From Candidatus Lustribacter sp. (lineage in GTDB: Bacteria; Vulcanimicrobiota; Vulcanimicrobiia; Vulcanimicrobiales; Vulcanimicrobiaceae): 64,000 bases of DNA. Shown here one piece after another: positions 38,815 to 64,000 of this stretch (position 1 is its first letter; every line of letters begins with the position of its first letter). Location: positions 2,784,001 to 2,848,000 of the forward strand of contig OZ255842.1 of assembly GCA_965277805.1 (NCBI GenBank), read 5' to 3'. The translations under genes and the position numbers were made by a program. The notes beneath the pieces are model-generated. The model was given only the letters and a program-made list of their open reading frames with translations, ran no database searches and was not told the DNA's origin.

Positions 38815-39179
38815 GAGCGCTCGAGGTCCGGGCGCAACACGCGCGCGCCGTCGAGATAGACATGGACGATTTCGTCTTGCCGCTTCTCGGTGTTGATGTG
38901 CAGCAGCACGCGAATCACGCGCGGCAACCCGCCCGGCACCGCGATCTCGGTGAAGTTCAACAGCGGCACGCGCGTCCAGCCCATGCGCCGCGCGGCTGCC
39001 GCCGGGAATTGCGAGACGAGATCGGGCGTGAGCGTGAAGAGCGCTGAGGCCACGTCGTCGGAATCGATCCCGTTCTCGGTCACGATTTCGCGCAGCAGCC
39101 GTTCGGTCGCGCTCAGCAGCAACTCCGCATCGTCGCGTTCGACGGTGATTGCACCGCGCACGCCGCGCACCGCGCTCAT
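38811..39179 (-). CDS. aroH: Chorismate mutase, AroH class
   Basis: VRGVRGAITV, FPAAAAR, HVYLDGA.VLRPD. Confidence 0.95.
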   Translation of the reverse strand: MSAVRGVRGAITVERDDAELLLSATERLLREIVTENGIDSDDVASALFTLTPDLVSQFPAAAARRMGWTRVPLLNFTEIAVPGGLPRVIRVLLHINTEKRQDEIVHVYLDGARVLRPDLERS

Positions 39180-39922
39180 GATTCTGCTCCCTCTTCGGCC
39201 TTCGCGACGTCGGCAATCACGCGCAGGGCGGAGACCTCACGTTTCGTCGCTTCACGGATCTCGCCCGGTGCGAGCGTGCCGAGGCCGATCGGGCCGAAAT
39301 GTAAACGCGTCAAACCGATCACGGGATGACCGAGTTCCTCGAACATGCGCCGCACTTGCCGGTTGCGCCCTTCGTGGATCGTGACGTCGACGCTCGACGC
39401 GTCGCGACGCGCGGCGACGACGCGCAAGCGCGCCGGTTGCGCCGGCCCGTCATCGAGCTTCATGCCGCGCTGCATCTCCGCAACTTGTTCCGTGCTCAAG
39501 CGCCCGCGCAATGTCGCGCGATAGGTTTTCTCGACGCCGAAGCGCGGGTGCGTGAGGACGTGCGCGAGCGTGCCGTCGTCGGTGAGCAGCAGCACGCCGG
39601 CGGTGTCGTAATCGAGCCGGCCGACGGGAACGACGCGCCGCTCCCAGCCGTTGCGCTTCAACACGTCGGCGATCGTACGCCGGCCTTCGGGATCGCGCAT
39701 CGTGGTGACGACGCCGAGTGGTTTGTTCATGACGATGTACGCCGGTTCGAGCGCGGGCGCGACGATCCGCCCGCCGAACTCGACGACGTCTTTGTCTTCG
39801 ACCGAGGTGCCGAGCTCCCGGACCACGCGTCCGTTCACCCGCACCAGACCCGCGACGATCAACTCTTCCGAGCGCCGCCGCGACGCGACCCCGCTCGCCG
39901 CGAGGTAACGCTGAAGTCTCAT
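39176..39922 (-). CDS. rluB: rRNA pseudouridine synthase (RluB/RsuA family)
   Basis: MRLQRYLA..GVASRR, PVGRLD, EGRNRQVRRM. Confidence 0.9.
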   Translation of the reverse strand: MRLQRYLAASGVASRRRSEELIVAGLVRVNGRVVRELGTSVEDKDVVEFGGRIVAPALEPAYIVMNKPLGVVTTMRDPEGRRTIADVLKRNGWERRVVPVGRLDYDTAGVLLLTDDGTLAHVLTHPRFGVEKTYRATLRGRLSTEQVAEMQRGMKLDDGPAQPARLRVVAARRDASSVDVTIHEGRNRQVRRMFEELGHPVIGLTRLHFGPIGLGTLAPGEIREATKREVSALRVIADVAKAEEGAES

Positions 39923-39924
39923 GG

Positions 39925-41262
39925 CTAGCCGGCGATGAGCGCGGCGACGTCCAGCGACGAGCGCGTCGCAAACGACGTTCGCTTCTCGCGTACTCCGTTG
40001 AGCTCGGATTCGGTCAGCAGCAATTCGTCGTCGCGCGTTCCGGAGAGACGCAGATCGATCGGCGGTTCGACGCGCGCACCGGCAAGTTCGCGCGAGAGCG
40101 CGATCTCGCAGTTCGCGATCGCCGTCGCTTCTTCGGCGATGACGGCGTCGAACGTCGACGGACCATCGACCGCGACCGTCGCAACGATCGTGAGCGAACC
40201 GCCCTCTTCGCACGCGCGCGCCGAACCGAAGAACCGCTTCGGCTTCGCCGCGACGGTGAAGTCGTTGATCGGGCGGCCTTGGGCCGGTCCCGTGCCGAAC
40301 GCGCGCGCCAGACGCGTGAGCGAATCGAGCAAGATCACGACGTCGGAGCCGAGTTCGACCAGCCGCTTCGCGCGTTCCATGACGAGTTCGGCAGTCGCGA
40401 CGTGATGGTCGGGATGTTCGTCGAAGGTGGTCGCGACGATCTCGCAGTCGATGCGCCGCTGCAGCGTCGCCGCATCTTCGGGCCGTCCGTCGATCGAGAG
40501 CACGATCAAGTGCGCGTCCGGCGCGTTGGCCAGAATTCCGAGCGCGAGCGTGACCAGCGTCGAGGTGGCGTCGACCCGCGGCGGCACGGTGACGAGCGCG
40601 CGCTGGCCTTTGCCGAGCGGCGCGTAGAGATCGAGTGCGCGCGTGGCCGGATCGCCCTTGACGGTGAGCTTCCAGCGCGACGCCGGCACCATCGCGTTGA
40701 GATCTTCAAACGAGCGGCGCGTGCGGATCGATTCGGGGTCGTAGCCGTTGACCGTCTCGACCTTGACGATGCCGTAGTACTTCTCGTTGTCTTTGGGGCG
40801 GCGGACTTGGCCCGCCACCAGGTCGCCGCGGCGCAATTCGAATCGCCGGATCTGCGACTGGCTGATGTATATGTCGTCGGCGCCGAGCAGGTAGCCCTCG
40901 CGCCGCAAGAACCCGTAGCCCTCGGGCAAGATGTCGAGTACGCCGTTCGCGTTCTCGACGCCGGAGCGCTGCGCTTGGCTCTCGAGGATCTCCGCGACCA
41001 GTTCGTCCTTCTTGATCTTGACCGGGGTCGCGATGTCGAACGTCTTGGCCAGCTCGTTGAGTTCGGCTTTGCTCATCTCGCCGAGCTGCTCGGCGGAGAG
41101 CTGCGGCGGCCCGACCGGCTGGGGGAATTCGGGTTGGGCGAAGACGTCGGCTTGCGACGGCGCGCCGTTTTCGTTGCGGTTGCGGTGGCGGCGCGAACGT
41201 CGGCGGCGCTGGCCACCACCTTCGGGGCGGCCATTTTGCGGGGGTCGATTATCGTATTGCAG
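39925..41262 (-). CDS. rho: Transcription termination factor Rho homolog with degenerate ATPase motifs
   Basis: GYGFLR, DIYISQSQIRRF, GKGQR, LLDSLTRLARA, PKRFFGSAR, SGTR; frame stays open upstream of ATG 41076 to CTG 41262. Confidence 0.88.
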   Translation of the reverse strand: MQYDNRPPQNGRPEGGGQRRRRSRRHRNRNENGAPSQADVFAQPEFPQPVGPPQLSAEQLGEMSKAELNELAKTFDIATPVKIKKDELVAEILESQAQRSGVENANGVLDILPEGYGFLRREGYLLGADDIYISQSQIRRFELRRGDLVAGQVRRPKDNEKYYGIVKVETVNGYDPESIRTRRSFEDLNAMVPASRWKLTVKGDPATRALDLYAPLGKGQRALVTVPPRVDATSTLVTLALGILANAPDAHLIVLSIDGRPEDAATLQRRIDCEIVATTFDEHPDHHVATAELVMERAKRLVELGSDVVILLDSLTRLARAFGTGPAQGRPINDFTVAAKPKRFFGSARACEEGGSLTIVATVAVDGPSTFDAVIAEEATAIANCEIALSRELAGARVEPPIDLRLSGTRDDELLLTESELNGVREKRTSFATRSSLDVAALIAG

Positions 41263-41397
41263 CGGAGTCGCTCTCTCGCGGAAGGGTGGGCCCGCATGCG
41301 TGGGGATCGACCGGTGAGGCTACCGGGATCCATCACGACGCGAAACGCCGTTAGGAACATGCCAACGTGGACGGGGTCTTACGCCCGGCAACGCAAG

Positions 41398-41408
41398 GAC
41401 TATAGCAC
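41398..41408 (-). promoter_or_regulatory. Extended -10 element upstream of rho
   Basis: TGcTATAGT on the minus strand about 140 nt upstream of the proposed start. Confidence 0.45.
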
Positions 41409-41416
41409 ACCGCAAT

Positions 41417-42070
41417 TCACGGCGACAAGGACCGCCGGCCGCTGACCGCCCGGCTTCCGCGCGCGTAAAAGCGGTGCGGACGCTCGGCCGCCTTCGTTAT
41501 ACCGATCCGTACGCTGGTCCCGATCGCCGGCGCGGCGCCGTCGTCGGCTATCACGACGCGGTCACCGGCATCGAGGTCGAGCCCGTCGAGCGCGGGCCCG
41601 ATGCCGAAGGCCCGGCAGACGTTGCCAGGCCCGCGCGCGAGTTCGTCATCGCGCAGCCCGTCGCGCCCGCGCTGACTGCGCATCCGGTCGAGACCGGTCA
41701 GCGGCTCGATCGCCCGGATCAACACCGCGGCACCGATCCCGGGCGCTTCGGTGCTGACGTTGACGCAATACGACGTACCATAGATAAGGTACACGTAGAG
41801 ATGCGCGTGCGGTTCGAACATCGCGCGGTTGCGCTTGGTCTCACCGCGATAGGCGTGCGAGGCGGGGTCGTCGATCCCGTACGCCTCGGTCTCGACGATG
41901 CGGCCGGACAATACCGTGCCGTCGTCGAGCCGGCGAATCAGCAGTTTGCCGATGAGGAAGCGCGCGAGTTCCAGCGTTTCCGCCGGAAGGTCGGCGCGCC
42001 GGAGACGTCTATGCGGCGGTGCGAAGCTGGAGCTCGGCGCGGGCGCGCCCTTCGAGATCGGCGATTTCAC
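41417..42070 (-). CDS. mpg: 3-methyladenine DNA glycosylase (MPG/AAG family); exact start uncertain
   Basis: GRIVETEAY, DPASHAYRG, YVYLIYG, AVLIRAIEP, GPGNVC, RIGI. Confidence 0.93.
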   Translation of the reverse strand: MKSPISKGAPAPSSSFAPPHRRLRRADLPAETLELARFLIGKLLIRRLDDGTVLSGRIVETEAYGIDDPASHAYRGETKRNRAMFEPHAHLYVYLIYGTSYCVNVSTEAPGIGAAVLIRAIEPLTGLDRMRSQRGRDGLRDDELARGPGNVCRAFGIGPALDGLDLDAGDRVVIADDGAAPAIGTSVRIGITKAAERPHRFYARGSRAVSGRRSLSP

Positions 42071-43873: not shown

Positions 43874-44950
43874 TTGCCTCCACCAGGAAAGGAGACGGGT
43901 ATCGGACGCGACTCCGCGTCGCCGATCGCAGCTATCGGCGTCCTCTCGCTCGGGCTACTGTTGCCCTTAGGCGCTGGACCTCTCACCGACCGGGCCGTCG
44001 GCATGCTTACGAGCAGCGTCGAAGGCCAGACCAAAACCATCACGCTCGTTCGCAACGGGCAGGCCGAGCCGGTTCGCACGCGAGCCATGACGGTCAAAGA
44101 TCTTCTCAGCGAACAGAACATCGAGCGCGCGCCGGACGACGCCCTTGATGTCGACCCCTCGTCCCCGCTCTCTGACGGCGAGACCATCGCGTATCGCGCG
44201 GCCGTACCGGTCACGCTGGTGGTCGACGGGAAGACCCAAACCGTCCAGACATCCGCCGAGACCGTCGGCGAGGTTCTGGCCCAGCAAGCGGTCGCCTTCG
44301 ACGCGCATGACAGCGTCATGCCCACAGTGCCCACCGCCGTTACGGCCGACGGCACGATCCGGGTCGACCACGTCAGTTCGTGGGTCGAACGGGTGAGCAA
44401 GCCCGTCGCCCCGCCGACCGAGCACCTGATCTCGTTCAAGCTGGCCGTCGGTCACATCAAAGTCCTGAAGAACGGGACGCCGGGCATCCGCGAGATCTCA
44501 TACCGGGTCACGCGCAGCGACGACCGGTCCGAGAAGCCCCGCCACGTTCAGCTCGCCTCGCGGATCGTCCGCAAGCCCCAGCCGCGCATCATTGCGGCCG
44601 GCATCGGCGACTACAGCTCCCTCGCCGCCTTCGCGCAGCGCGGGATCGACGGGACGATCAAACTGGCCAAGGACGCCATCTCGATGGTGGCCACCGCCTA
44701 CACCGCGAATTGCTACGGCTGTTCCGGCCTGACCGCCTCCGGGCAGCACGCCGGCCACGGGATCGTGGCGGTCGACCCACGGGTTATCCCGCTCGGCTCC
44801 CACCTCTATATCCCCGGCTACGGCCAAGCCATCGCCGGTGACACCGGCGGCGCCATCCACGGCAACCGGGTCGACCTCGGCTTCAACAGCAACTCCGACG
44901 CCATGCAATTCGGACGCCGGTCTGTTACCGTCTACGTATTACACCCGTAG
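43874..44950 (+). CDS. YabE-like cell-wall protein (DUF348 + G5 + 3D domains); start may be ATC 43901
   Basis: TVKDLL and TVGEVL repeats; G5-like GTPG; 3D domain ATAYT, VAVDPRVIPLG, AGDTGGAI.GNRVD; upstream of rsmA. Confidence 0.9.
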   Translation: MPPPGKETGIGRDSASPIAAIGVLSLGLLLPLGAGPLTDRAVGMLTSSVEGQTKTITLVRNGQAEPVRTRAMTVKDLLSEQNIERAPDDALDVDPSSPLSDGETIAYRAAVPVTLVVDGKTQTVQTSAETVGEVLAQQAVAFDAHDSVMPTVPTAVTADGTIRVDHVSSWVERVSKPVAPPTEHLISFKLAVGHIKVLKNGTPGIREISYRVTRSDDRSEKPRHVQLASRIVRKPQPRIIAAGIGDYSSLAAFAQRGIDGTIKLAKDAISMVATAYTANCYGCSGLTASGQHAGHGIVAVDPRVIPLGSHLYIPGYGQAIAGDTGGAIHGNRVDLGFNSNSDAMQFGRRSVTVYVLHP

Positions 44951-44960
44951 ATAGAAGCTC

Positions 44961-45779
44961 ATGAACCCGCGGGCACTCCTGGGTGCTCGCGGGCTGCGCC
45001 CCAAGAAGTCGCTCGGACAGAACTTCCTCATGGACGCCGGCACGTCGGCCCGCATCGCGCGGCTGACGGTCGACGCACCCGGTGACCGGGTGCTCGAAGT
45101 CGGTGCCGGAACCGGCTCGCTCACCGCCGCGCTGCTCGCGGCCGGGGCCGATCTCACCGCCTTCGATCTCGACGACAGCCTGGTCGACATCTTGCGTTCG
45201 CGCGACGATCTCACGAACGTTCGCATCGAGCACGGCGACGCGCTGGATTTCGATTATGCGGAGTACGGCGGCGAACAGCCGTGGCGCGTCGCCGGCAACC
45301 TTCCCTATAACATCGCGACGCCGCTGCTGATCAAACTCGCCCAAATGGAGCGCCCGCCGGAGCGCATCGTGGCGATGATTCAGAAAGACGTCGCCGATCG
45401 GTTGCTCGCGCAGCCGGGGACCGCCGCGTACGGCAGCCTCACCGTGGCGCTGTCGGTCACGATGCGCGTCGAACGCGCGTTCAACGTTTCGCCCGGACAG
45501 TTTTTTCCGCGGCCGAAAGTCGTCTCGTCGGTCGTCGTCTTGCACCGCCTGGAGGCGCCGCTGGTCGACGTGCGCGATCGGCAACGCTTCGAACAGGTCG
45601 TGCGCGGCGCGTTCGCGTACCGCCGCAAGACGCTCGCCAACTCGCTTTCGCTCGCACTCGCACTCCCGCGTGAGCAGATCGCAGCGGCGCTGCTCGCCCT
45701 CGAATTGGACGCCGACATCCGTGGAGAAGCCCTCGATCTCCGAACCTTCGCCGCTCTCGCCGACGCGCTGGCCGGCTGA
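44961..45779 (+). CDS. rsmA: 16S rRNA adenine dimethyltransferase
   Basis: KKSLGQNFL, LEVGAG.G, NLPYNI, MIQKDVA, F.PRPKV.S, RRKTL.N. Confidence 0.96.
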   Translation: MNPRALLGARGLRPKKSLGQNFLMDAGTSARIARLTVDAPGDRVLEVGAGTGSLTAALLAAGADLTAFDLDDSLVDILRSRDDLTNVRIEHGDALDFDYAEYGGEQPWRVAGNLPYNIATPLLIKLAQMERPPERIVAMIQKDVADRLLAQPGTAAYGSLTVALSVTMRVERAFNVSPGQFFPRPKVVSSVVVLHRLEAPLVDVRDRQRFEQVVRGAFAYRRKTLANSLSLALALPREQIAAALLALELDADIRGEALDLRTFAALADALAG

Positions 45780-46476
45780 CGCCTTCGCCTGGCAGCGCTC
45801 GCTGGCCGTGCTCGTGGCGCTGGGGCTCGCGTTCTATCTCGGGCTTCGGCTCGACGCCACGATCGCCGTGTACTTGGGGTCGACGCGCCACGATTTCAGC
45901 GCGTCGAACCTCACCTGGGGCATCGCGATCGGCCAGTATGTCAGCTACGTGCCGCTGCTCGTGGTGCTGCTGATTGCGATGCCGTGGCTGAGCCGCCGGT
46001 CACTGCGCGAACTCGGACTGCGCGGCTTCGGCCGCACGACCGTGATCGCGGGCGTGCTCGGCGCGCTCGCGATGTACGTGGTGACGATCGGCATCGCGAA
46101 CGTGCAGTTTCTGATCACGCATCAGAAGCCCGAAGAAGCCGCGATCTCGCTCTTCACCTCAACCCACGACACCGCGCTGATCGTGACGTTCACGTTCTTG
46201 GCGGCCGTCGTTGCGCCGTTCATGGAAGAGTTCGTCTTCCGCGGCTTCCTCTTCAACGCGCTGCTGCGCTACATGCCGATCTGGGCCGCGGCCGTGATCA
46301 GCGGCATCATCTTCGGCGCGTCACACGGCTCGCCGAGCGCCTTTCTCCCGCTTGCCGCGAGCGGCGTCGTCCTCGCCTACGTCTACGAACGCAGCGGTTC
46401 GCTGACCGCCGCGATGCTGACCCACGCGCTCTTCAACCTCATCAACGTCGCCCTGATCTCGGTGGCGAAAACCTAA
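45721..46476 (+). CDS. CPBP (CAAX protease/Abi) family intramembrane metalloprotease
   Basis: APFMEEFVFRG, FGASH, HALFN. Confidence 0.9.
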   Translation: MEKPSISEPSPLSPTRWPADAFAWQRSLAVLVALGLAFYLGLRLDATIAVYLGSTRHDFSASNLTWGIAIGQYVSYVPLLVVLLIAMPWLSRRSLRELGLRGFGRTTVIAGVLGALAMYVVTIGIANVQFLITHQKPEEAAISLFTSTHDTALIVTFTFLAAVVAPFMEEFVFRGFLFNALLRYMPIWAAAVISGIIFGASHGSPSAFLPLAASGVVLAYVYERSGSLTAAMLTHALFNLINVALISVAKT

Positions 46477-48080
46477 CCTCCCTGGTGGGGATAGCGCCAG
46501 TCGCGGATGGGAACGAGTTGCTCCTTGATGGTGCGCGGCGACGTCCAGCGAAGCAGGTTGAGCATCGATCCGGCCTTGTCATTTGTGCCTGAAGCACGCG
46601 AGCCGCCGAACGGCTGTTGACCGACGACGGCTCCGGTGGGCTTGTCGTTGATGTAGAAATTGCCGGCGGCACCGCGCAACTGCTTCGTCGCGGCGGCCGG
46701 CACCGCAGGCTCGGTCGCAAATACTGCACCGGTCAGCGCATATGGGGTCGTGCTTACAGCCAATTCGACCGTGCGTTCCCAATCGGCGTCTTCGTAGACG
46801 AACACCGTAAGGATCGGGCCGAACAACTCGCGCGTCATGCCCTCGGAATGCGGATCGTCCGTGCGCAACACCGTCGGTTCGATGAACCAGCCTGCGTTGT
46901 CGTTGGCGGCGCCACCGCAGACGAGCTCGTCGCGGCGGTTTCGTGCGGCGGCCAGCGCGCCCGCGAGGCGCTCGAAGGCCGCGCGGTTGATGACGGCGCC
47001 GAGAAACGTGCGCGGATCGGCCACGTCGCCCATCCGCATTTCGCCGGCAATATCCGCGAGCTCGTCGCGAACGCGCGGCCAAAGGCTGCGTGGAATATAG
47101 GCTCGGGAGGCGGCGGAACATTTCTGGCCTTGATACTCGAAGGCGCCGCGCGCGAGGCCGACCACCAAGGCTTCTACGTCGGCCGAGGGATGCGCGAGCA
47201 CGAAATTCTTGCCGCCCGTTTCGCCAACCAGGCGCGGGTACGTGCTTTGCGCGTTGAGGTTATTTCCAATCAGCCGCCACAGCGAGCTGAAGACGGCGCT
47301 CGAACCGGTAAAGTGCAGACCGGCAAACTTCGGATCGGCGATCGCGATTTCAGCCGCCAGCGCGCCGTCGCCGTGCACGAGATTTATCACGCCGTCGGGC
47401 AAGCCGGCCTCGCGCAGCAGCAGCATCGTGTAGTGCGCGGACAACGCCTGACCGACGGACGGCTTCCACACGACGGTGTTGCCCATCAACGCCGGAGCGC
47501 TCGGCAAGTTGCCGCCGATCGCGGTGAAGTTGAACGGCGAAATGGCCAGCACGAACCCATCGAGCGGACGATAATCGAGCGTGTTCGTGACTTCGGGCGG
47601 CGAGAACGGCTGCTCGGCTTCGATGCGCTCGGCGAAGTAGGCGTTGAAGCGCCAGAAGTCGGCGAGTTCGCACGCGGCGTCGATTTCCGCTTGATGCACC
47701 GATTTCGATTGACCCAACATCGTCGCGGCATTGAGACGCGCGCGCCATGGGCCGGAAAGCAGATCGGCCGCGCGCCGGAAGATCGCCGATCGTTCCGAGA
47801 GTGGCAGCCCTGCCCAATCCGATGCGGCTGCAATGGCCGCGGCAGTCGCGTTTCGAATATCCCATTCGTTCGCTTGATGAACGTGCGCGACGACCAGCTT
47901 GTGATTGTGCGGCGCCGTGAGCTTCAGCACGTCCTTCGAGGCGACGTCGTGATCGCCGATCCGCATCAGCGCCTCGGCCGGCTGCTGCGAAAGCGCGGCC
48001 AGCTCGAGTCGTAACGTCTCGATTGCCGGGCTTCCGGGCGCGTAGGTCGCCACAGGTTCGTTCGCCGGCCGTTCCGTCAT
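46473..48080 (-). CDS. pruA: L-glutamate gamma-semialdehyde (P5C) dehydrogenase
   Basis: AEIDAACEL.DFWRFN, SPFNFTAI, GETGGKN, FEYQGQKCSA, NFYINDKPTGAVVGQQPFGG. Confidence 0.95.
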   Translation of the reverse strand: MTERPANEPVATYAPGSPAIETLRLELAALSQQPAEALMRIGDHDVASKDVLKLTAPHNHKLVVAHVHQANEWDIRNATAAAIAAASDWAGLPLSERSAIFRRAADLLSGPWRARLNAATMLGQSKSVHQAEIDAACELADFWRFNAYFAERIEAEQPFSPPEVTNTLDYRPLDGFVLAISPFNFTAIGGNLPSAPALMGNTVVWKPSVGQALSAHYTMLLLREAGLPDGVINLVHGDGALAAEIAIADPKFAGLHFTGSSAVFSSLWRLIGNNLNAQSTYPRLVGETGGKNFVLAHPSADVEALVVGLARGAFEYQGQKCSAASRAYIPRSLWPRVRDELADIAGEMRMGDVADPRTFLGAVINRAAFERLAGALAAARNRRDELVCGGAANDNAGWFIEPTVLRTDDPHSEGMTRELFGPILTVFVYEDADWERTVELAVSTTPYALTGAVFATEPAVPAAATKQLRGAAGNFYINDKPTGAVVGQQPFGGSRASGTNDKAGSMLNLLRWTSPRTIKEQLVPIRDWRYPHQGG

Positions 48081-48083
48081 CGC

Positions 48084-48953
48084 TTATTTACTCCCCATGC
48101 CCAACGCAGCCCGCAGAGCAAAGACCGTGTTCTCCCTGCGTTCGAGCATCCGGCGGCGAAAGTATCTCGCCCAATGTGATCCGAACGGCACGTATATTCG
48201 CACCGAATACCCGTCTTTCGCGAGCGAGCGCTGCAGATCGGGGCGAACGCCGTAGAGCATTTGGAATTCAAACGCGGTCTTGGGAATGTCGCGTTCATCG
48301 GCGAACCGGCGCAAGCGGTCGATGAGATAGGTGTCGTGCGTTGCAAATGCCGGCAAGTGTCCGCCGCCGAACAGCGCGATCGCGCATTTCAGAAAGTTCG
48401 CGCGGATCTCCGCCACATCGCGCATCGCAACGTGGGCCGGTTCGCGATAGGCGCCTTTGCAAAGACGAACGCGCATGCCCAACCTCGTTACCGTTTCGAC
48501 ATCATCGTACGTCCGATAGAGCGCCGCCTGGAGAACCGGTCCGGTATTCGAATGCTCTGCGAACGCCGACGTCACCGTTTCCAGCGTGCTGTTGACCAGC
48601 GCGGACCCTTCCATATCGACCCGGACGAACGGGTCGGCCAAGACCTCGGCGCCGTTCAGAATCGCCTCGTAGCGCCCCATCGTGCCGGCATCGCCCAGTG
48701 TCAAGCCGAGTGCGCTGAGCTTCAGCGAAAGGTTCGTCGTTTTCAAACCTTCGTTCCGGATCGACTCGATGAGCGCGAGGTAGGCGTCGCGCGTGCCGTC
48801 GGCATCAGCAGCGCTTTTGACATCCTCGCCGAGGACGTCGATGGTTGCCTTCAGGCCGTCGCCGTTCAACCGCCGAACGGCTCGAATCGCATCGTCGCTC
48901 GAGTCTCCCGCGACGAAACGCGCCGCTAATGGAAACAACAGCTGTTGCAGCAC
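48084..48953 (-). CDS. Proline dehydrogenase
   Basis: RFVAG, RVDME, RLCKGAY.E, ATHD, EFQMLYG, YF.RR..ER. Confidence 0.94.
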   Translation of the reverse strand: MLQQLLFPLAARFVAGDSSDDAIRAVRRLNGDGLKATIDVLGEDVKSAADADGTRDAYLALIESIRNEGLKTTNLSLKLSALGLTLGDAGTMGRYEAILNGAEVLADPFVRVDMEGSALVNSTLETVTSAFAEHSNTGPVLQAALYRTYDDVETVTRLGMRVRLCKGAYREPAHVAMRDVAEIRANFLKCAIALFGGGHLPAFATHDTYLIDRLRRFADERDIPKTAFEFQMLYGVRPDLQRSLAKDGYSVRIYVPFGSHWARYFRRRMLERRENTVFALRAALGMGSK

Positions 48954-48962
48954 GACGGCTCG

Positions 48963-50066
48963 CTAGGCCGGACGAAGCTCTTGCCCGCCCCCGGCCGCAG
49001 AGCGAACGTCGTCGACGATCGCACGCAAGCGTGCGATGAAGCGCGGCGGAGCGAATGTTTCGGCGTGCGCGCGCAGGGTTTGTGCGTTGAAGCGGGTGCG
49101 GTCGAAGGCGGTGATGGCGGCGGCGAGCGATGCGTCGTTGGGGTCGTCGAAGAACGTGCCGGTTTGGCCCTCGACGATCGTTTCGAGCGCGCCGCCGGCG
49201 CGCAGGGCGATCGTGGGTGTGCCCGCGGCGGCGGCCTCGAGCGGGACGAGGCCGAAGTCTTCTTCGCCCGGCAGAATCACGGCGCGCGCGTCGCCCGCCA
49301 GCGCGTTGACCGCCGCATCGTCGATATAGCCGTGGAATGTCGTCTGCGTGCCGGCGGCGAGCGCGCGCAGTGCGGCCTCGTGCGGTCCGCTGCCGACGAC
49401 GTGCAACGCTACGCCGGCCTGCGCGCACGCGCGGATCGCCCGGTCGACCGCCTTGTACGAGAGCAAGCGCGAGATCACGACGAAGTAGTCGCCGCGGCCG
49501 GCGCCCGGCGTGAAGCGATCGACGTCGACCGCGCACGGGAGCACGTCGGCGTCGCGTCCGTAGTAGCGGCGAATGCGATCGGCGACGTTGCGCGAGTTGG
49601 CGACGAAGCGGGTCGGGCGCTGCGCGGCGCGCACGTCCCACTTCGCCAGCGCGGCGACGACCGGACGCGCCAGCGGGTTGCCGGTGAGGCCGCCGACGTA
49701 GCGTCCTTCATCGAAAACGAAACGGCTCACGGTGTTGATGTAGCACACGTGCACGGCGCCGGGCGGCACGATCACGCCCTTCGCCCACGATGTCGTGGAA
49801 CTGACGATCGTGTCGTAACCGCGCAGGTCGAACGACTCGAACGCCGCCGGATAGAACGGCGCATAAGCGCGAAAAAGCCTTTGTTTTAAAGGAAAATTCT
49901 GCAGGAACGACGTGTGCACGAGCGCTTGCGGAACGATGTCGGCGAGGTCGGGCGAGTAGATCGAGGTGTACACCGGAGCACCGGGGTACGCCGTGAGAAA
50001 ATGTGCGAAGACCCGCTCCGCGCCGCCGCGCTGGTTGAGGTAATCGTGAACGAGTGCGACGCGCAG
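48963..50066 (-). CDS. GT4 glycosyltransferase; start extended to CTG 50066
   Basis: In-frame LRVALVHDYLNQRGGAERV upstream of the tracked ORF; EDFGLVPLEA. Confidence 0.88.
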   Translation of the reverse strand: MRVALVHDYLNQRGGAERVFAHFLTAYPGAPVYTSIYSPDLADIVPQALVHTSFLQNFPLKQRLFRAYAPFYPAAFESFDLRGYDTIVSSTTSWAKGVIVPPGAVHVCYINTVSRFVFDEGRYVGGLTGNPLARPVVAALAKWDVRAAQRPTRFVANSRNVADRIRRYYGRDADVLPCAVDVDRFTPGAGRGDYFVVISRLLSYKAVDRAIRACAQAGVALHVVGSGPHEAALRALAAGTQTTFHGYIDDAAVNALAGDARAVILPGEEDFGLVPLEAAAAGTPTIALRAGGALETIVEGQTGTFFDDPNDASLAAAITAFDRTRFNAQTLRAHAETFAPPRFIARLRAIVDDVRSAAGGGQELRPA

Positions 50067-50076
50067 GGGTCTAGGA

Positions 50077-51327
50077 TTAGGACTTGCGCGGGAGGACGAG
50101 CGCTACCGTGTAGTGCTGCAGATAAACTTTGGCCATGCGCTGGAGGTCTGCTGGGGTGACGCGATCGATCTGCGCGCCGATCGTTTGCGCGAGCGCCGGA
50201 TCCGCGCCTTCGTTGACGGCGGCGCCGATTTGCCACGCGCGATCGTTCAGGGTCACTGCTTCGAGCGCCCAATCGCCGCGCGCGCTTTCCTTGTAGCGCT
50301 TGATCACGTCCGCCCCAAGCGGCTTGGTCACCGCGCTCTTGAGGATCGCTTGCAGCACGGTCAGGCCGGCGCTCGGATCGACCTGGCTGCCGTTGATCGC
50401 GACGATGAACGACGACGGTTTGACGTCGTAGGTGTAGACGACGTTGATCCCGCGCTCGAAGGCCTCGGGCGTCGTCGTGCTCTGGCGCGAGGCAACGTCG
50501 TTGAGCATCGAACGCAGCACCAGCATCGCGCCGAAGTCGGGATCGTTCATGGCGGGCGCGGCAAAACCGACGAACGCGAACGGAACGCCGATCTCACGCG
50601 AGGTCACGAGGTGCTTGGGTTGGGGACCGAAGGCTTGAGCGGCGAGTACCGGCGGCGCCTCACTGCCGGCGGGCAGCGCGCCGATCACGGCGTTGATCGC
50701 GGTATTCGATGCGTCGTCGACCGCCCCGGTCGCGGTCGCGAAGGCATCGCCGCGCAGGTAGTGGGCGGCGAAGAACGCGGCGACGTCCGCCGGCCCGAGT
50801 TGCGCCAACGACGCGCTCGTGCCGAATGACGGCGCGCCGGCGGTGCCGCGATAATAGGAGTTGCGCAGCATCTCAACGCCGACGGTTACCGGATTCTGCT
50901 CGTCGTCGCCGATGCGATCGGTGAGCCGCGCGCGGGCGGCATTCACCGTCTCGGGCGACGTGTCGAGCGATGCCAACGCGCGCGCGATATCCGCACTCAC
51001 GGCGGGCAGCGCGCTCGGCAGCACTTCAAACGAAAACCGCACGACGCCCGGATCGACCGCGTAGTCGACCGATCCGCCGGCGGCCGCGATGCGGTCGGTC
51101 AGGCGCGTGCCGTCGATCTTGGTGAAGAGCAGCGTCTGCGCGGTCAACGCCGCGAGGCCGTTTTGGGCTGCGATCTGACGCGCGGTGCCGGCACTTACCA
51201 CGAGATCGATGCCGACGAGTTGCGCGCCGGCGTCGCTTTGCGCGTAGAACTTCGTTGCGCCGAGATCGACGGCGTGCGGCGGACCGGAAAGGGCGACGGC
51301 TGCGGCCAGCAGCAGCGGCAGCATCAT
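50077..51327 (-). CDS. Secreted M16 (insulinase) peptidase-like protein lacking HxxEH
   Basis: Signal peptide; GLAALT, GTSASLAQL...V..F...Y, VTPADLQRMAKVYL. Confidence 0.75.
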   Translation of the reverse strand: MMLPLLLAAAVALSGPPHAVDLGATKFYAQSDAGAQLVGIDLVVSAGTARQIAAQNGLAALTAQTLLFTKIDGTRLTDRIAAAGGSVDYAVDPGVVRFSFEVLPSALPAVSADIARALASLDTSPETVNAARARLTDRIGDDEQNPVTVGVEMLRNSYYRGTAGAPSFGTSASLAQLGPADVAAFFAAHYLRGDAFATATGAVDDASNTAINAVIGALPAGSEAPPVLAAQAFGPQPKHLVTSREIGVPFAFVGFAAPAMNDPDFGAMLVLRSMLNDVASRQSTTTPEAFERGINVVYTYDVKPSSFIVAINGSQVDPSAGLTVLQAILKSAVTKPLGADVIKRYKESARGDWALEAVTLNDRAWQIGAAVNEGADPALAQTIGAQIDRVTPADLQRMAKVYLQHYTVALVLPRKS

Positions 51328-52640
51328 TGGGGGATCGCCGGTTGCGGCGCGACGCTGATCGAGACGCCGGGCCGATCGAGGTATTTGGCGGCCGTCGCCG
51401 CGACGAACTCAGGCGTGAGCCCGTTCGCCGCGCTCAGGTAAGCGCCGGAAATTCCGCCTTCGCCGGGCGCGTAGCTCGCATTGCCTTCCACAGCGTACCA
51501 GCCGTAGGTGTCGGCCAGTTCGGCCGGGGTCTCGCCGTCGCTGAGGATGTGGTAGATGAATTGATGGCGCGCCGCTTCGAACGCCGCGCTGCTCAGCGGC
51601 CGGCGGATCGCCTGCAGCGCCGCATCGACCGCGGTGCGCGCAGCGGCTTGGTCGCCGCCGCTGGCCGTCATCAAAAACACGCCGGGATCGTGATAGGTCA
51701 CGAACGTTCCGACGACGCTCGAACCCGAGCTGCGAACGGCCTTTTGCACGACACCGGTCTCCGGATAAAACAGGTAGTCGGCGATGAAATCGAACGCCGT
51801 CGCCTCGCGTTCGTTGCTGATCGGCGGCCCGGCCCAGCCGAGTCCAAAACCCGGCTCGACCCCGCGGGCCGAAACCGGACCGCTGATGGGGGCCAGTGTT
51901 TCCGGAGCGGGCTTCTCGGCTCCGGCCGCCGCGTCTTCACGTCCCGGCAACGCTGAAGCGAGCACCGACGTGTCGACCGCACCGGTGACGACGAGGACCG
52001 CGTTCGCGGGCCGGAACGCGCGCTCGGCATAGGAACGCACCGCATCGATCGTGAGCGTAGAAAACGAACCGCTCGAACCATAGGGCGGAATCTTCGCCGG
52101 ACCGGCCGCGAAGAGTGCCGCGTAGATGGCATCGGTGATGGCCGCGCCGCGATCGTAGGCGCGCACCGTGCCGTCTTGGATCACGCTGCGGCGCGCCGCG
52201 ACGAGGCCGGGCTCGCTCATGACGGGTGAAAAATACGAGCGCGTCATTGCGCGCACCGCGTCGGCCGCGCGATCGGCCGGCACCACCACCGAAATCGCGA
52301 TGCTCTCCGGGTACGTGCTGATCCTGAGCCGTCCGCCGGCTTGGTGCACGAAGGCCGAGAGCGACGTGCCGGTGACCGGCTGCGAGGCGGCGACCGCCGA
52401 GGCCGCGAGACGGCCGAGACCCGGCACCGCATCGCCCGCAAAGCCGGCGGCCGGTGCACGGTACCAGAGCGCGACGGCCGCGACCGAGGCGCCGCCTTCG
52501 GGCCGCACCAGATACGTGCCGCCGCCGGCCAGCGAGCCCGTGAGCGCCGCCGGTGCCGCTGGATCCGGGCCCGCGCCGGCCGTAGAAACAACGAGGGCCG
52601 CGCCAACCAGCGCGGCCCTCACGACGGCGCCGATGCGCAC
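51324..52640 (-). CDS. Secreted M16 peptidase-like protein lacking HxxEH
   Basis: Signal peptide; VALWYRA, FRPANAVLVVTG, DPGVF, LTPEFVAATAAKYL. Confidence 0.75.
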   Translation of the reverse strand: MRIGAVVRAALVGAALVVSTAGAGPDPAAPAALTGSLAGGGTYLVRPEGGASVAAVALWYRAPAAGFAGDAVPGLGRLAASAVAASQPVTGTSLSAFVHQAGGRLRISTYPESIAISVVVPADRAADAVRAMTRSYFSPVMSEPGLVAARRSVIQDGTVRAYDRGAAITDAIYAALFAAGPAKIPPYGSSGSFSTLTIDAVRSYAERAFRPANAVLVVTGAVDTSVLASALPGREDAAAGAEKPAPETLAPISGPVSARGVEPGFGLGWAGPPISNEREATAFDFIADYLFYPETGVVQKAVRSSGSSVVGTFVTYHDPGVFLMTASGGDQAAARTAVDAALQAIRRPLSSAAFEAARHQFIYHILSDGETPAELADTYGWYAVEGNASYAPGEGGISGAYLSAANGLTPEFVAATAAKYLDRPGVSISVAPQPAIPQ

Positions 52641-52642
52641 CG

Positions 52643-54559
<1,917 letters not shown>

Positions 54560-54650
54560 GGTTGGTGAGACTTTCGTACCGTTCTTTCTGACCGAACGTT
54601 TCTCGCTTCAACCCATGTCGGCGGCATACCGTGGCAAGATCTCAGAGCTC

Positions 54651-55241
54651 CTATTCGGGATCTGAGAAGATGTCCGGGCGGAGTTTCGCGATGTAGGGCA
54701 GAGTCCGGTACCGTTCTTGATAGTCCAAACCGTACCCTACGATAAACTCGTCAGGACATGTCAATCCCACGTAATCGGCCTTAACGTTGGCGATCCGGCG
54801 GTAGGGCTTGTCGAGCAAGACCGCCGAGCGCAAGGACAGCGGCTTCCGGGCCGAGAGCAGCGCGTTGAGGTACGAAAGGGTGAGACCATTGTCGATGATG
54901 TCCTCGACGATGACCACGCGGCGCCCCTCAATAGCGTGGGTGGTATCCTGGATGAGGCGCACCTCACCGGAGGAGCGGCTGGCGTTGCCGTAGCTCGAGA
55001 CCGCGATCACGTCGAGGTAGACCCGGGCCGGGCCCGGTTGGAGCCCGTCGAGCTCCCGGGCGAGGTCGGAGAGCACGTGGACTGCGCCCTTGAGGACCCC
55101 GAGCAGCAGCACGTCCTCGCCGACGTGGTCGCGGGCGATTTGCTCGGCGAGCGAGCGGATCGCGGCGGCGATCTCGGCCTCGCTGAACAGCACGCATTCC
55201 AGATCGGGGTGGAGCGCTCGCGCCGAAGGCTGTGACGTCAT
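54651..55241 (-). CDS. hpt: Hypoxanthine phosphoribosyltransferase
   Basis: GVLKGA, SSYG, IVEDIIDNGLT, FIVGYGLDY..YR.LP. Confidence 0.95.
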   Translation of the reverse strand: MTSQPSARALHPDLECVLFSEAEIAAAIRSLAEQIARDHVGEDVLLLGVLKGAVHVLSDLARELDGLQPGPARVYLDVIAVSSYGNASRSSGEVRLIQDTTHAIEGRRVVIVEDIIDNGLTLSYLNALLSARKPLSLRSAVLLDKPYRRIANVKADYVGLTCPDEFIVGYGLDYQERYRTLPYIAKLRPDIFSDPE

Positions 55242-55259
55242 CCCCGGGCCTTCGCGAAA

Positions 55260-56459
55260 CTAGCCGAGCGTTGCCTTCGCCGTCGCGGCCGCGGGCGTAA
55301 CGACACGCAGCACGACGACGGCGATCGCCAGCGCCGCGGTCAGCACCAGCGCGACCGCGATCACGGTGCCGGTCCATCCGCTCGCACCGTATACGATGCC
55401 GCCGAGCGAACCGAGCACGCTCGACCCCAAATAGTAGGCGAAGAGATAGAGTGCGGTCGCGTGCGCCCGGCCCTGCATTGCGCGGCGCCCGACCCAGCTG
55501 CTTGCAACCGAATGTGCGCCGAAGAACCCGATCGTCAGCACCGTGATGCCGCCGATGATGGTGATCAGATTGCCGGCGAGCGTGATCAGCACGCCGGCGA
55601 GAAAGATCAGCTCGCTGATCCAAAGCACGTTGCGCCGGCCGAAGCGATCGGCGAGCCGCCCCGCGACTGCCGATGCGGCACTGCCGAGCAGATACACGAC
55701 GAAGATCGCGCCGATCGCGGATTGGCTGAGCGCGAACGGCGGCAAGGCCAAGCGAAAGCCGACATAATTGTAGATCGTCACGAACGCGCCCATGATGAGG
55801 AAGCTCGTCACGTAGAGCCACGGCAAACCGGCGTCGGCGATGTGCGCGCGGTATGCGGCGACGTGTTCGCGCGGCGACTGCGGACGCGGCGTGAAGTTGC
55901 TCGACGCGGGCAGCAACAGCGCGACCGCGATCGCGCAGGCGATGCCGACCGCACCGATCGCCACGAGCGCCATCCGCCAGCCCGCCGCATCGGCAACGAA
56001 GCCGACGATGAAGCGCCCCGACATGCCGCCGAGCGCGGTGCCCGCAACGTAGAGGCCCATCGAGAATCCGAGCGCCGCGGGCGCCACCTCTTCGCTGATG
56101 TAGGCCATCGCGATCGCGGGCACGCCGCTGATCGCAACGCCTTCGAGCAGCCGCAGCCCGAGCAGCGTGGGGAAGTTCGGTGCGGCCGCGCACAAGAACG
56201 TGATCGCGCTCGAGATCGCGAGCGACGCAACGATCGGGAGCTTGCGGCCGAGCGTCTCCGAGAGCGAGCCCGCGACGAATAGCGCGACGGCGAGCGCCAG
56301 CGTGGTGGCCGAGAGCACCAGGCTCGCAGTCGCCGGCGCAACCGCGAACTCGCGCGCGAGCGCGGGCAGCAGCGGCTGCACGTCGTAGAGCGCCGCAAAC
56401 GTTGCAAAACCAGCCAGCAGCAACGCAAAGCTGGCTAGCCAATACCGCCGCGTGTTCAC
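55260..56459 (-). CDS. MFS transporter (YnfM-like)
   Basis: 12-TM pattern; LYDVQPLLP, AMAYISEE, LADRFGRR. Confidence 0.9.
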   Translation of the reverse strand: MNTRRYWLASFALLLAGFATFAALYDVQPLLPALAREFAVAPATASLVLSATTLALAVALFVAGSLSETLGRKLPIVASLAISSAITFLCAAAPNFPTLLGLRLLEGVAISGVPAIAMAYISEEVAPAALGFSMGLYVAGTALGGMSGRFIVGFVADAAGWRMALVAIGAVGIACAIAVALLLPASSNFTPRPQSPREHVAAYRAHIADAGLPWLYVTSFLIMGAFVTIYNYVGFRLALPPFALSQSAIGAIFVVYLLGSAASAVAGRLADRFGRRNVLWISELIFLAGVLITLAGNLITIIGGITVLTIGFFGAHSVASSWVGRRAMQGRAHATALYLFAYYLGSSVLGSLGGIVYGASGWTGTVIAVALVLTAALAIAVVVLRVVTPAAATAKATLG

Positions 56460-57319
56460 GCGCCGGGTTCGATCTCGCCGTTGACCGCTTCGACGCCGGG
56501 CTTCAGAAACACGCGCGCGCCGGGCGCCGCGTCGAGCGCGGCTTCGATGCGCTCGAACGGAATGTCGCGCAAGAGGTCGCGCTCGCGCAGGCGCTCGCGC
56601 AGATCCTTGCGCGCGCGCGCACGCTCGTCGCCCGAACGTTCGGCGCGCACGATCTCGGCGCAGCGCGCGACCGATACATCGAGTTGCGGAAAGTCGGCCC
56701 GCAAATCGTCGAGCCGCGCGCGCAGCGCGTTGCGCCGGTAGCGCACGTGCGCGTTCGTCGGATCGAGCGCGTACGGCAATCCGATCCGCCGCAGTTCGGC
56801 GTGCAGTTCGGCGTGCGTGACGCGCAGGAACGGACGCACGAGATCGATGCCCTCGGCAAGCGGGCGGCGCGGCGGCATGCCCGCGAGGCCGTCGAGTCCG
56901 CTGCCGCGGAAGAGCGCGAGCAGCACCGTCTCGGTTTGATCTTCCGCGCAGTGCGCGGTCGCGATCGCGGTTGCGCCGCAGTCGCGCGCGATCGCCTCCA
57001 GCGCCGCATAGCGCGCCGTGCGCAGCGCGGCTTCATCATCGTCCGCGCTCACGGCCGCAACGCGCACCGGACGGTCGAGGCGCGCGCCGAGCGAGAGCAC
57101 GACGCATTCATCTTGCCACGCCGACGCGCGCAATCCGTGATTGACGTGCGCGAGCACGACCGAGAAATCATCGGCCCGCCCGATGCGGTCGAGCACGGCC
57201 GCCAGCACGACCGAGTCCGGGCCGCCCGACGTCGCGACGACGACGGTCGCGCCCGCGGGCACGCGCAGCGTGCGCCGCACGCGGTTATCGAGAAACGCGC
57301 CCGGCCGCGCGCCGCGCAT
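56456..57319 (-). CDS. tilS: tRNA(Ile) lysidine synthetase, short form
   Basis: SGGPDS, HVNHGLR, AH..DQTET, RP, DPTN, RN.LR. Confidence 0.93.
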   Translation of the reverse strand: MRGARPGAFLDNRVRRTLRVPAGATVVVATSGGPDSVVLAAVLDRIGRADDFSVVLAHVNHGLRASAWQDECVVLSLGARLDRPVRVAAVSADDDEAALRTARYAALEAIARDCGATAIATAHCAEDQTETVLLALFRGSGLDGLAGMPPRRPLAEGIDLVRPFLRVTHAELHAELRRIGLPYALDPTNAHVRYRRNALRARLDDLRADFPQLDVSVARCAEIVRAERSGDERARARKDLRERLRERDLLRDIPFERIEAALDAAPGARVFLKPGVEAVNGEIEPGA

Positions 57320-57813
57320 TAGCTGGTCGCGCGCTCCAGGTCGCGCTTCGCGTCGCGCTCGGCGATCGTGCGGCGCTTGTCCCAGATCTTCTTGCCGCGC
57401 ATCAGTCCCAGTTCGAGCTTCACCCGCCCGCGCTTGAAGTACAGCCGCAGCGGGATCAGCGTGAGGCCCTTTTCGGCCGCGCGTCCGGTCAGCCGTTCGA
57501 GCTGCTCCTTGTGCAAGAGCAGCTTGCGCGGGCGGCCGGGCTCGTGGTTGAAGATGCTGCCTTCCTTATACGGGGGAATGGTGAAGTTGACGAGCCACAG
57601 CTCGCCGTCGCGCACGCGGGCAAAGCCCTCGTTGAGGCTGAGGTTGCCGTTGCGAATCGACTTGATCTCGGTGCCGCTGAGCGCAACGCCGACCTCGAGC
57701 GACTCGAGTTTCTCGTATTCGAAGCGCGCCCGGCGATTGTCGAACGTCGGCTCCTTTGCTGCGCTCTTCTGCTCGCCCGCGGCCGCCGCTTTGCGCGCGA
57801 CTTTGGATTTCAT
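57319..57813 (-). CDS. smpB: SsrA-binding protein
   Basis: NRRARFEY, L.GTEIKSIR, RKLLLHK, GKK..DKR. Confidence 0.97.
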   Translation of the reverse strand: MKSKVARKAAAAGEQKSAAKEPTFDNRRARFEYEKLESLEVGVALSGTEIKSIRNGNLSLNEGFARVRDGELWLVNFTIPPYKEGSIFNHEPGRPRKLLLHKEQLERLTGRAAEKGLTLIPLRLYFKRGRVKLELGLMRGKKIWDKRRTIAERDAKRDLERATS

Positions 57814-58217
57814 AGCGGACCAAGAGACACGAAGGTGCCCTCGGCGGTTGCGAGGACCGTGCCGTCTTCGAGCGTCAGGCTTGCTTCGAGGAAGAGGACG
57901 TTGCGGCGGCGCTCCTTGTAGCGGCCGCGCATCACGAGCGTTTCGCCGAGCGGCACGGGCTTGCGAAAGCGGATCTCGCACGACGCGGTCGTCGCCCGCT
58001 CGCCGATGAAACGGCACGCGTGCGCCATCGCTTCGTCGAGCAGCATCATCACGATCCCGCCGTGGGTCACGCCGCGATAGCCCTGCAGGCGCGGGCCCAG
58101 CATCACTTGGCTGCGCGCGCCGTCGCTGCCGTCCGGCTCGAACTCCAAATGCAGGCCGTCGGGGTTATGCGGCCCGCACGCAAAGCAGCGCCGGTCGTCA
58201 ACAAATTCTTCGATCAT
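57810..58217 (-). CDS. PaaI family hotdog thioesterase
   Basis: CFACGPHNPDGL, QGY.GVTHGG, LLDEAM. Confidence 0.9.
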   Translation of the reverse strand: MIEEFVDDRRCFACGPHNPDGLHLEFEPDGSDGARSQVMLGPRLQGYRGVTHGGIVMMLLDEAMAHACRFIGERATTASCEIRFRKPVPLGETLVMRGRYKERRRNVLFLEASLTLEDGTVLATAEGTFVSLGPL

Positions 58218-59808: not shown

Positions 59809-59809
59809 G

Positions 59810-62193: not shown

Positions 62194-62253
62194 GAAACCA
62201 AAATTCTGCGTTGCACGCAAATACCCGTGCTCCGGCGAAAGCGGGTGCCCTTA

Positions 62254-63567: not shown

Positions 63568-64000
63568 TCGTCTACGCCGCGCGGCTCTTGCAGGCCGGCG
63601 GCGTGGTCGCACTTCCCACGGAGACGGTCTACGGTCTCGCGGCCGACGTGACGAACGCGGCCGCCGTGCGCCGCATCTACGCGATCAAAGGCCGGCCGCT
63701 CGATCACCCGTTGATCGTGCACTTGCCGGGCGCGGAGCTGCTCGAACGGTACGCCGTCGACGTACCGGACGCGGCGCACAAACTCGCCGCGGCGTTCTGG
63801 CCGGGGCCGCTGACGATCGTGCTGCGTAAGGCGGAGGAAGTTCCGTTCTATGTCACGGGCGGACAATCGACGGTCGCGCTGCGCACGATCGATCATCCGC
63901 TCACGCGCGCCATTCTCGCGCGCTTCGGCAGCGCAGTTGCGGCGCCGTCGGCGAATCGCTTCGGACGCGTCAGCCCGACCACCGCCGAACACGTGCACGC
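63552..64000 (+). CDS. tsaC: L-threonylcarbamoyladenylate synthase (Sua5/TsaC), partial; start uncertain
   Basis: Manual translation: VVALPTETVYGL, IYAIKGRPLDHPLIVH, FWPGPLTIVL, AAPSANRFG..SPT. Confidence 0.93.

Follow-up and report, generated by a model that had tools for sequence, protein, structure and literature searches.

The window Rho and its motor motifs

The window analyzed here, a 64,000-nucleotide stretch of contig OZ255842.1 from Candidatus Lustribacter sp., carries on its reverse strand a gene for a homolog of Rho, the transcription termination factor treated as a universally conserved ATP-driven motor. The gene (39925..41076, with its TAG stop at 39927..39925) lies between mpg-like and rluB-like genes and is the only rho of its genome. 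We found that its product keeps the RNA-binding half of Rho and has lost the residues that drive the motor. We consider it probable, on evidence that is computational throughout, that the window protein is an ATPase-dead, RNA-binding Rho derivative, i.e., a pseudo-enzyme.

As listed from an internal ATG, the open reading frame (ORF) runs without interruption, as the initial annotation had read it, and encodes a full-length Rho homolog of 383 residues. Pfam places three domains in the order expected of Rho: the Rho_N helix bundle (PF07498, 28.2 bits; residues 2 to 39, 40960..41073), the Rho_RNA_bind oligonucleotide/oligosaccharide-binding (OB) fold (PF07497, 111.7 bits, E = 1.4e-32; residues 44 to 115, 40732..40947), and a RecA-type ATPase-like domain (ATP-synt_ab, PF00006, 57.6 bits; residues 145 to 345, 40042..40644), which keeps its fold by Pfam and the structure model and lacks the motor residues. 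The protein scores 404.3 bits against the NCBIfam model NF006886, above the cutoff of 315, and 407.3 bits against TIGR00767, below the cutoff of 509.45. Its alignment with Escherichia coli Rho spans residues 5 to 361 at ∼42% identity; E. coli numbers used below come from a residue-by-residue alignment to chain 1pv4_A. An AlphaFold2 model based on a 61-row alignment had a mean predicted local distance difference test (pLDDT) score of 88.9 and a predicted template modeling (pTM) score of 0.84, with pLDDT falling below 50 in one stretch only, Q-loop residues 264 to 266. A Foldseek search of the PDB gave nothing but Rho chains among its 50 top matches (TMq, 0.77 to 0.87). Prediction of a homodimer from two copies scored 0.00, which weighs neither for nor against oligomerization. 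The C terminus is ∼35 to 40 residues shorter than in canonical relatives.

The gene also sits where its relatives keep rho. A 3-methyladenine glycosylase-like (mpg-like) gene, identified as an ORF and by neighbor comparison, lies upstream (41417..42070, reverse strand); an rluB-like pseudouridine synthase gene lies downstream (39176..39922, reverse strand), its ATG 2 nucleotides (nt) after the rho stop. The same two genes flank rho in 66 of 69 loci, in canonical and degenerate forms alike, and the gene tree is congruent with that of RpoB, so that the window gene is a positional ortholog of its relatives' rho. The genome, a single contig of 5.53 Mb in which NusG is present, has one TIGR00767 match at the level of Rho (the next best, at E = 2e-17 and weaker, cover the ATPase part only) and one Rho_RNA_bind domain; the search for a second canonical rho that the initial annotation had called for thus found none. 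Each of the eight genomes of the genus has one copy, and two full-length copies were found in 0 of 201 family genomes, the few double matches being contig-end fragments or split frames. The window gene is the vertically inherited, sole rho of this Eremiobacterota genome. Close homologs carry the labels Candidatus Eremiobacteraeota, Velthaea, or Elarobacter, from which the phylum follows.

Alignment to 1pv4_A bore out the changes that had been read from the P-loop and the catalytic motif. The P-loop PPKAGKT (E. coli 179 to 185) is replaced by PPRVDAT (residues 165 to 171; PPRVDATS, 40561..40584), i.e., K181R, A182V, G183D, and K184A, which leaves no GK(T/S). IDERPEE (209 to 215) is replaced by IDGRPED (residues 195 to 201; 40474..40494), in which the catalytic Glu, E211, has become Gly and the Arg valve, R212, is kept. 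We refer to the form found in the window genus as type A and followed it in 64 sequences (7 loci plus 57 of 61 protein clusters; four clusters without the N-terminal string were dropped). Among these, G183 is Asp in 97% and E211 is Gly in 98%; position 184 is substituted and variable, and K184, R353, and F355, positions on the adenine and phosphate sides, all vary. The catalytic Glu is absent from all 61 best protein clusters (66 to 91% identity), being Gly in 60 and Cys in 1. In E. coli Rho, the single change E211A abolishes ATP hydrolysis and leaves ATP binding and oligomerization unaffected (PMC4499133).

The loops that thread RNA are altered as well. The Q-loop (E. coli 278 to 290; 40258..40299) is replaced and shortened by four residues, as the initial annotation had noted: alignment places gaps of 1 and 3 residues in it, and it reads GTGPAQGRPINDF (FGTGPAQGRPINDF over the listed span), with K283 changed to Arg and Asn at the position of T286. 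The octapeptide EEFKGTGN has indeed become EEATAIAN (residues 315 to 322; 40111..40134), as had been claimed; its labeling as the R-loop does not hold, since this motif occupies E. coli positions 333 to 340 and the loops of Rho lie at 179 to 183 (P-loop), within 278 to 290 (Q-loop), and at 322 to 326 (R-loop) (PMC1950744). The true R-loop is changed too: E. coli has DTGSK there, canonical relatives have ETGSK or DTGSK, and the window protein has DGPST (40153..40167), so that K326 is lost. E. coli K326A has its ATPase activity reduced by ∼75% (PMC4499133). Taking Q-loop and K326 together, the secondary RNA-binding site of Rho is not preserved in the window protein.

Other parts of the active site are retained. 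Walker B reads VVILLDS (40321..40341), its LLDS aligned and D265 kept as D251; the SGTR motif (40033..40044) carries the Arg finger R366 as R348; and R269 and R272 are kept alongside these and R212. The primary RNA-binding motifs are also in place, as had been stated: GYGFLR, Y70, E98, and Y100 align with the GFGFLR-type motif, Y80, E108, and Y110, which we take to be the residues of E. coli Rho that form its primary site for RNA binding. The same dead-motif states were found in all eight genomes of the genus (78 to 100% identity); the same sample contains 19 Rho sequences of genera elsewhere in the family, order, and class, and these are canonical.

Selection and the fate of rho across the family

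We compared constraint on the two halves of the protein by pairwise Nei-Gojobori (NG86) ratios of nonsynonymous to synonymous divergence (dN/dS) among seven sequences of the genus (21 pairs). The N-terminal domain (residues 1 to 125) had a median dN/dS of 0.040, the value also listed for Rho_RNA_bind, and the ATPase-like domain (residues 126 to 350) a median of 0.175 (range, 0.043 to 0.304). In two canonical genera, the corresponding values were 0.054 and 0.035 for the N-terminal domain and 0.012 and 0.017 for the ATPase domain. The pattern of constraint is therefore inverted relative to canonical Rho, with the N-terminal domain as the conserved part. The N-terminal half is constrained as in a working Rho, while the ATPase-like half is relaxed about 10-fold yet clearly not neutral, a pattern that argues for selection and rules out neutral decay. 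The initial annotation had proposed this domain-wise analysis and had named a finding that would speak against its reading, namely, close relatives that keep GKT and DERPEE around a neutrally decaying copy; instead, the dead states occur in 8 of 8 genus genomes.

Position-by-position conservation gave the same picture. We called a position invariant if it was at least 95% identical in 46 canonical relatives. In the 64 type-A sequences, 46 of 48 such positions are unchanged in the N-terminal domain versus 75 of 162 in the ATPase-like domain, which supports the earlier proposal that the elements for ATP hydrolysis and RNA threading were lost selectively. The remaining ATPase-like positions either switched and became fixed (21 of 162; for example, G183D and E211G) or are variable (66 of 162, including K184, K326, K336, R353, and F355). 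The ORF is open in seven of the eight genus genomes, at mutual synonymous divergence (dS) of 0.1 to 1.0.

In many members of the family, no Rho was found. At a threshold of E ≤ 1e-40, a Rho match was found in 149 of 201 family genomes and was lacking in 52; among the 122 good-quality genomes, 98 had a match and 24 did not, and by genus the count was 46 of 78. None of the five near-complete genomes without a Rho match (95 to 99% complete, from five genera) contains a Rho_RNA_bind domain. Four of these five gave an mpg match (loci L078 to L081, in G032, G011, G041, and G033), and in these four the gap between mpg and rluB measures 0, 98, 77, and ∼670 nt, with no rho remnant in it, i.e., the deletions are clean. 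Thus, a dispensable rho has been removed in this family, whereas the window rho has been kept intact.

Among the genomes that do carry the gene, a table of motifs at 69 loci separated 46 canonical rows from five noncanonical types. Type A (8 rows) is that of the window genus. Type B (7 rows) has lost GKT and the Arg finger, has Ser in place of the Walker B Asp, and keeps the catalytic Glu. In type C (5 rows), the catalytic motifs are all intact and residues 333 to 340 are altered; type D (1 row) keeps GKT and has a short Q-loop; and type E (2 rows) has lost GKT, has Ala at the catalytic Glu, and lacks 17 Q-loop residues. The ATPase-like domain had a dN/dS of 0.232 in type B, 0.138 in type C, and 0.168 in type E; since it is relaxed in these types too, relaxation precedes the loss of motifs.

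Trees of Rho and RpoB place these forms in a single part of the family. The Rho tree (66 rows, leaving out a fragment, a frameshifted row, and a misaligned row) joined the noncanonical forms in one group (Shimodaira-Hasegawa-like approximate likelihood ratio test [SH-aLRT] support, 85), with types A and B together (99) and type D next to them (95); the branch of type E is very long, which makes its placement unsure. The RpoB tree comprised 60 genomes, including five of other families as outgroups. Its clade I (25 rows; bootstrap/SH-aLRT, 97/89) is entirely canonical, and its clade II (30 rows; 95/91) holds 16 Rho-less genomes, 13 noncanonical ones, and one scored as canonical; all Rho-less and all noncanonical genomes sampled fall in clade II. 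Canonical states were checked by motifs for 12 rows of this tree, and the rest are in the 69-locus table or belong to a genus represented there. Types A and B are sisters in the RpoB tree (94/94) within a group of A, B, C, and D (85/92), and type E falls with Rho-less genera; both trees agree on ((A,B),C,D). The sole clade II genome with a canonical rho (G092; locus L147 on contig G092:C252) owes it to a 5.9-kb contig in a bin with 6% contamination; this rho is 96% identical to that of a clade I genus and is probably a contaminant.

GKT persists in types C and D, which implies two or more separate losses of the P-loop, one in A/B and one in E. The catalytic Glu also disappeared two or more times, in A and again in E. 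Across clade II, rho has been deleted or its motor has degenerated, the latter by two or more independent routes. Some of the canonical rows in these comparisons come from unpublished genomes: rows of G030, G040, G047, G048, G126, and G150 entered the motif table, the Rho tree, and the canonical set of 46 sequences. G126 and G150 also make up half of a four-sequence canonical dN/dS group, the other group containing no unpublished genomes. Unpublished genomes G015, G038, G069, G117, G158, G178, and G185 were counted in the genus and family tallies. Claims about the window genus, types A to E, and the RpoB tree rest on none of these unpublished genomes.

Two further observations concern this sample. 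A canonical clade I rho in a single-contig genome (L153; G034:C1:298300-300600) is split over two frames at about residue 143, which may be either an assembly indel or a recent break. Judged by their size ranges, genera with degenerate Rho also seem to carry larger genomes than most genera of the family with canonical Rho (type A, 3.4 to 5.8 Mb; B, 3.4 to 5.0 Mb; C, 3.8 to 5.4 Mb; E, 3.3 to 4.4 Mb; many canonical-Rho genera, 2.1 to 3.3 Mb).

Start codon and surroundings of the gene

The gene probably begins upstream of the ATG at 41076, which the initial annotation had taken as its 5′ limit. An in-frame, 62-codon N-terminal extension (41077..41262, reverse strand) starts at a CTG (41262..41260), and the product from there would have 445 residues. 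The extension is Arg-rich (10 Arg, with GGGQRRRRSRRHRNR), and at the protein level it is conserved across 19 loci that belong to two families. Within the genus, its dN/dS is 0 to 0.10 at a dS resembling that of the rest of the gene, which argues that it is translated and under purifying selection. In the window, the stretch that separates the upstream stop from 41076 contains no in-frame ATG, GTG, or TTG. The CTG is preceded in 19 of 19 loci (L006 to L024) by GAGAG(A/G)G and a spacer of 7 to 8 nt; in the window this Shine-Dalgarno-like sequence match is GAGAGAG (41271..41277, reverse strand), 8 nt 5′ of the CTG, and conservation 5′ of the CTG is at the nucleotide level, not in frame. Judged from these sequence features, rho probably starts at the conserved CTG rather than, or besides, the ATG.

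A pattern search recovered the CTG in 7 of 7 type A loci, 7 of 7 type B, 2 of 5 type C, 0 of 1 type D, and 0 of 2 type E; the three other type C loci read P-L-H-F-D-N-R, which falls outside the search pattern. The ATG at 41074-41076 is derived: canonical relatives have Lys at this position, and Met is common to types A to D. This Lys-to-Met change falls where the Arg-rich tail meets the helix bundle and yields the internal ATG, which gene callers mostly choose. Two isoforms, with and without the Arg-rich tail, are possible, and in this order the noncanonical CTG start of rho may serve regulation. In the type D locus (L046, G077), the tail-coding region 5′ of the conserved QPEFPQPVGPP stretch lies in another frame, and this lineage may have lost the Arg-rich tail.

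A promoter-like site (TTGTCG-18-TATAGT, with an extended −10 TG; 41399..41428, reverse strand) is a consensus match only; it overlaps the end of the mpg-like gene, ∼130 nt 5′ of the rho CTG. An Rfam scan of the entire window gave no matches. In a crude scan of window positions 1 to 40000 and 44001 to 64000, terminator-like hairpins with a T-run numbered 52 (9 + 25 + 18) against 50.6 expected from shuffling, i.e., classical intrinsic terminators are not in excess in this genome despite its lack of a Rho motor.

Interpretation, rivals, and related systems

If the window protein is an ATPase-dead Rho derivative, its parts may have come to serve separate ends. The OB-fold clefts, together with the Arg-rich N-terminal tail, would still bind single-stranded, C-rich RNA, and the dead RecA-like domain would act as a scaffold for oligomerization or for binding a partner. 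Such a protein should be unable to bind or hydrolyze ATP, to close on RNA, or to translocate; any effect that it had on transcripts or RNA polymerase would then be independent of ATP. Of the roles that the initial annotation had ventured, either an RNA-binding scaffold or an ATP-independent termination factor may apply. The protein would be akin to a Rho ring held permanently open and thus catalytically inactive. According to a review, an open Rho ring is catalytically inactive and is the form seen on RNA polymerase in the disputed "stand-by" complexes (PMC12360218). We suggest that the window protein arose in a clade in which the Rho motor became dispensable, with sister lineages deleting rho or inactivating it through other residues. 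We put forward a more specific scenario only tentatively, with the chances somewhat against it: this Eremiobacterota clade gave up the Rho motor, some genera deleting rho and others making, at least twice independently, an ATP-independent RNA-binding ring that is kept by selection and retains an effect on transcription, for instance by occupying nascent RNA and RNA polymerase in the open stand-by form.

Several points weigh against reading the window protein as a maintained, ATPase-dead RNA-binding factor. Constraint on its ATPase-like domain is markedly reduced, and some of the protein may be subject to drift. The dN/dS values come from NG86, a simple method, and the pairs compared within the genus are not independent of one another; the C-terminal 33 codons gave dN/dS values of 0.07 to 0.6, with 1.17 for one pair and zero for the closest pair. 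In one of the eight genus genomes (G002), the gene is split over two frames near codon 333, either through an assembly error or by a real break. Outright deletion of rho in many sister genera shows that the ancestral function is dispensable and leaves open that the retained one is minor, and the sequence is compatible with ATP binding through an unorthodox site. Short pieces from a soil RNA library (X19, Logan contigs) are 90 to 98% alike (for example, over 41154-41314, with three differences); these contigs show neither strand nor ends and may derive from DNA rather than from transcripts.

Some of these points would suit a decaying relic, a copy whose function was lost in the clade and that merely awaits deletion, and the failure to find Rho in 52 of the 201 family genomes and in 24 of the 122 of good quality, the loci cleanly emptied in 4 of 4 relatives examined, the ∼10-fold increase in dN/dS of the ATPase-like domain, the shortened C-terminal tail, and the split frame in one genus genome all fit such a fate. 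We nevertheless think it very unlikely. A relic should not have stayed open in 7 of 8 genus genomes over a dS of 0.1 to 1.0, with dN/dS at 0.040 in the N-terminal domain and no more than 0.10 in the extension, nor should it keep 46 of 48 canonical-invariant N-terminal positions in 64 sequences; moreover, 21 ATPase-domain positions switched and were then fixed (G183D at 97%, E211G at 98%), and all 61 best clusters are full-length Rho-like proteins. Another reading, that the protein remains a functioning NTPase or translocase whose active site is unorthodox, draws on the retained Walker B Asp, Arg valve R212, R269/R272, and Arg finger R366, on the occurrence of migrated catalytic residues in some pseudoenzymes (PMC10211241), and on Mycobacterium tuberculosis Rho, which functions with Thr at the K326 position (PMC4499133). 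It is very unlikely in our judgment: the P-loop Gly-Lys has become Asp-Ala, with position 184 unconserved even within type A; Gly replaces the catalytic Glu in 98% of type A sequences; R353 and F355 vary; and the Q-loop is shortened and poorly modeled. Loss of this Glu by itself kills hydrolysis in E. coli (E211A) and in M. tuberculosis (E386A) (PMC4499133). Sister type B has instead lost the Walker B Asp and the Arg finger, the pattern expected if the site was already dead.

The remaining two explanations fare worse. Rho is a homohexamer, and mixed rings are conceivable, so that the window protein might be a regulatory or dominant-negative subunit mixing with a second, active Rho, as the initial annotation had ventured; some bacteria do own two rho genes (PMC11347177). 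Copy counts contradict the idea at every level, with one Rho-level match and one Rho_RNA_bind domain in a single-contig genome, a single copy in each of the eight genus genomes, and 0 of 201 family genomes with two full-length copies, which makes it extremely unlikely. An assembly or sequencing artifact of a normal rho, for which nothing specific speaks, deserves next to no credence: the same states recur in eight genomes that are independent of each other and in 61 protein clusters of several origins, and the changes are substitutions and in-frame indels rather than frameshifts.

Compared with known systems, the window protein is closest to canonical Rho of the E. coli type (TIGR00767/NF006886; PDB 1pv4 and 3ice), with which it shares the three-part architecture, the fold, the primary RNA-binding residues, the Walker B Asp, Arg valve, and Arg finger, and the mpg-rho-rluB locus of its relatives. 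It differs in lacking the P-loop Gly-Lys, the catalytic Glu, the R-loop Lys, and the motif at 333 to 340, in its shorter Q-loop and C terminus, and in falling under the TIGR00767 cutoff. Engineered E. coli E211A and M. tuberculosis E386A Rho likewise have no catalytic Glu; these mutants oligomerize, bind ATP and RNA, and hydrolyze no ATP (PMC4499133). They are laboratory point mutants of an essential enzyme, whereas the window Rho is natural, fixed, and the sole copy, and it additionally lacks the nucleotide-binding loop and the RNA-threading loops. The other degenerate Eremiobacterota forms (types B to E) resemble it in ancestry, by the Rho and RpoB trees, and in their conserved N-terminal domain, and types B, C, and E also in the relaxed ATPase-like domain; their motif losses differ from those of type A (B keeps the Glu, C all of the catalytic motifs, and D GKT). 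The short second Rho paralog, NF041509 (paralog_Rho2), gives a partial match of 318 bits, far under its cutoff of 628, and second short Rho copies retain the catalytic residues (PMC11347177).

We found no published case of a natural ATPase-dead, RNA-binding Rho as the sole copy in a genome. A 2024 survey of 2,730 species reports the ATPase domain to be highly conserved among functional Rho factors; in the sections consulted, it lists Rho-less phyla and no motor-dead sole Rho (PMC11347177). Among the matches listed in our literature searches, no pseudo-ATPase or pseudoenzyme work on Rho factor was found, and papers joining "Eremiobacterota" and "Rho" appeared from their titles to be ecological; none was found that joins "Eremiobacterota" and "transcription termination." If our reading is true, the scaffold of Rho is put to some use other than motor-driven termination, and the window protein would offer a natural test of whether Rho influences elongation or termination without translocation, as well as a natural ATPase-dead protein with which to examine the disputed stand-by/allosteric model (PMC12360218). 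The family as a whole forms a graded series, from canonical Rho through fast-evolving intact forms and forms dead in different ways to outright deletion, and provides a route to what makes Rho dispensable. As a warning to users of genome databases, automatic annotation names these proteins "transcription termination factor Rho."

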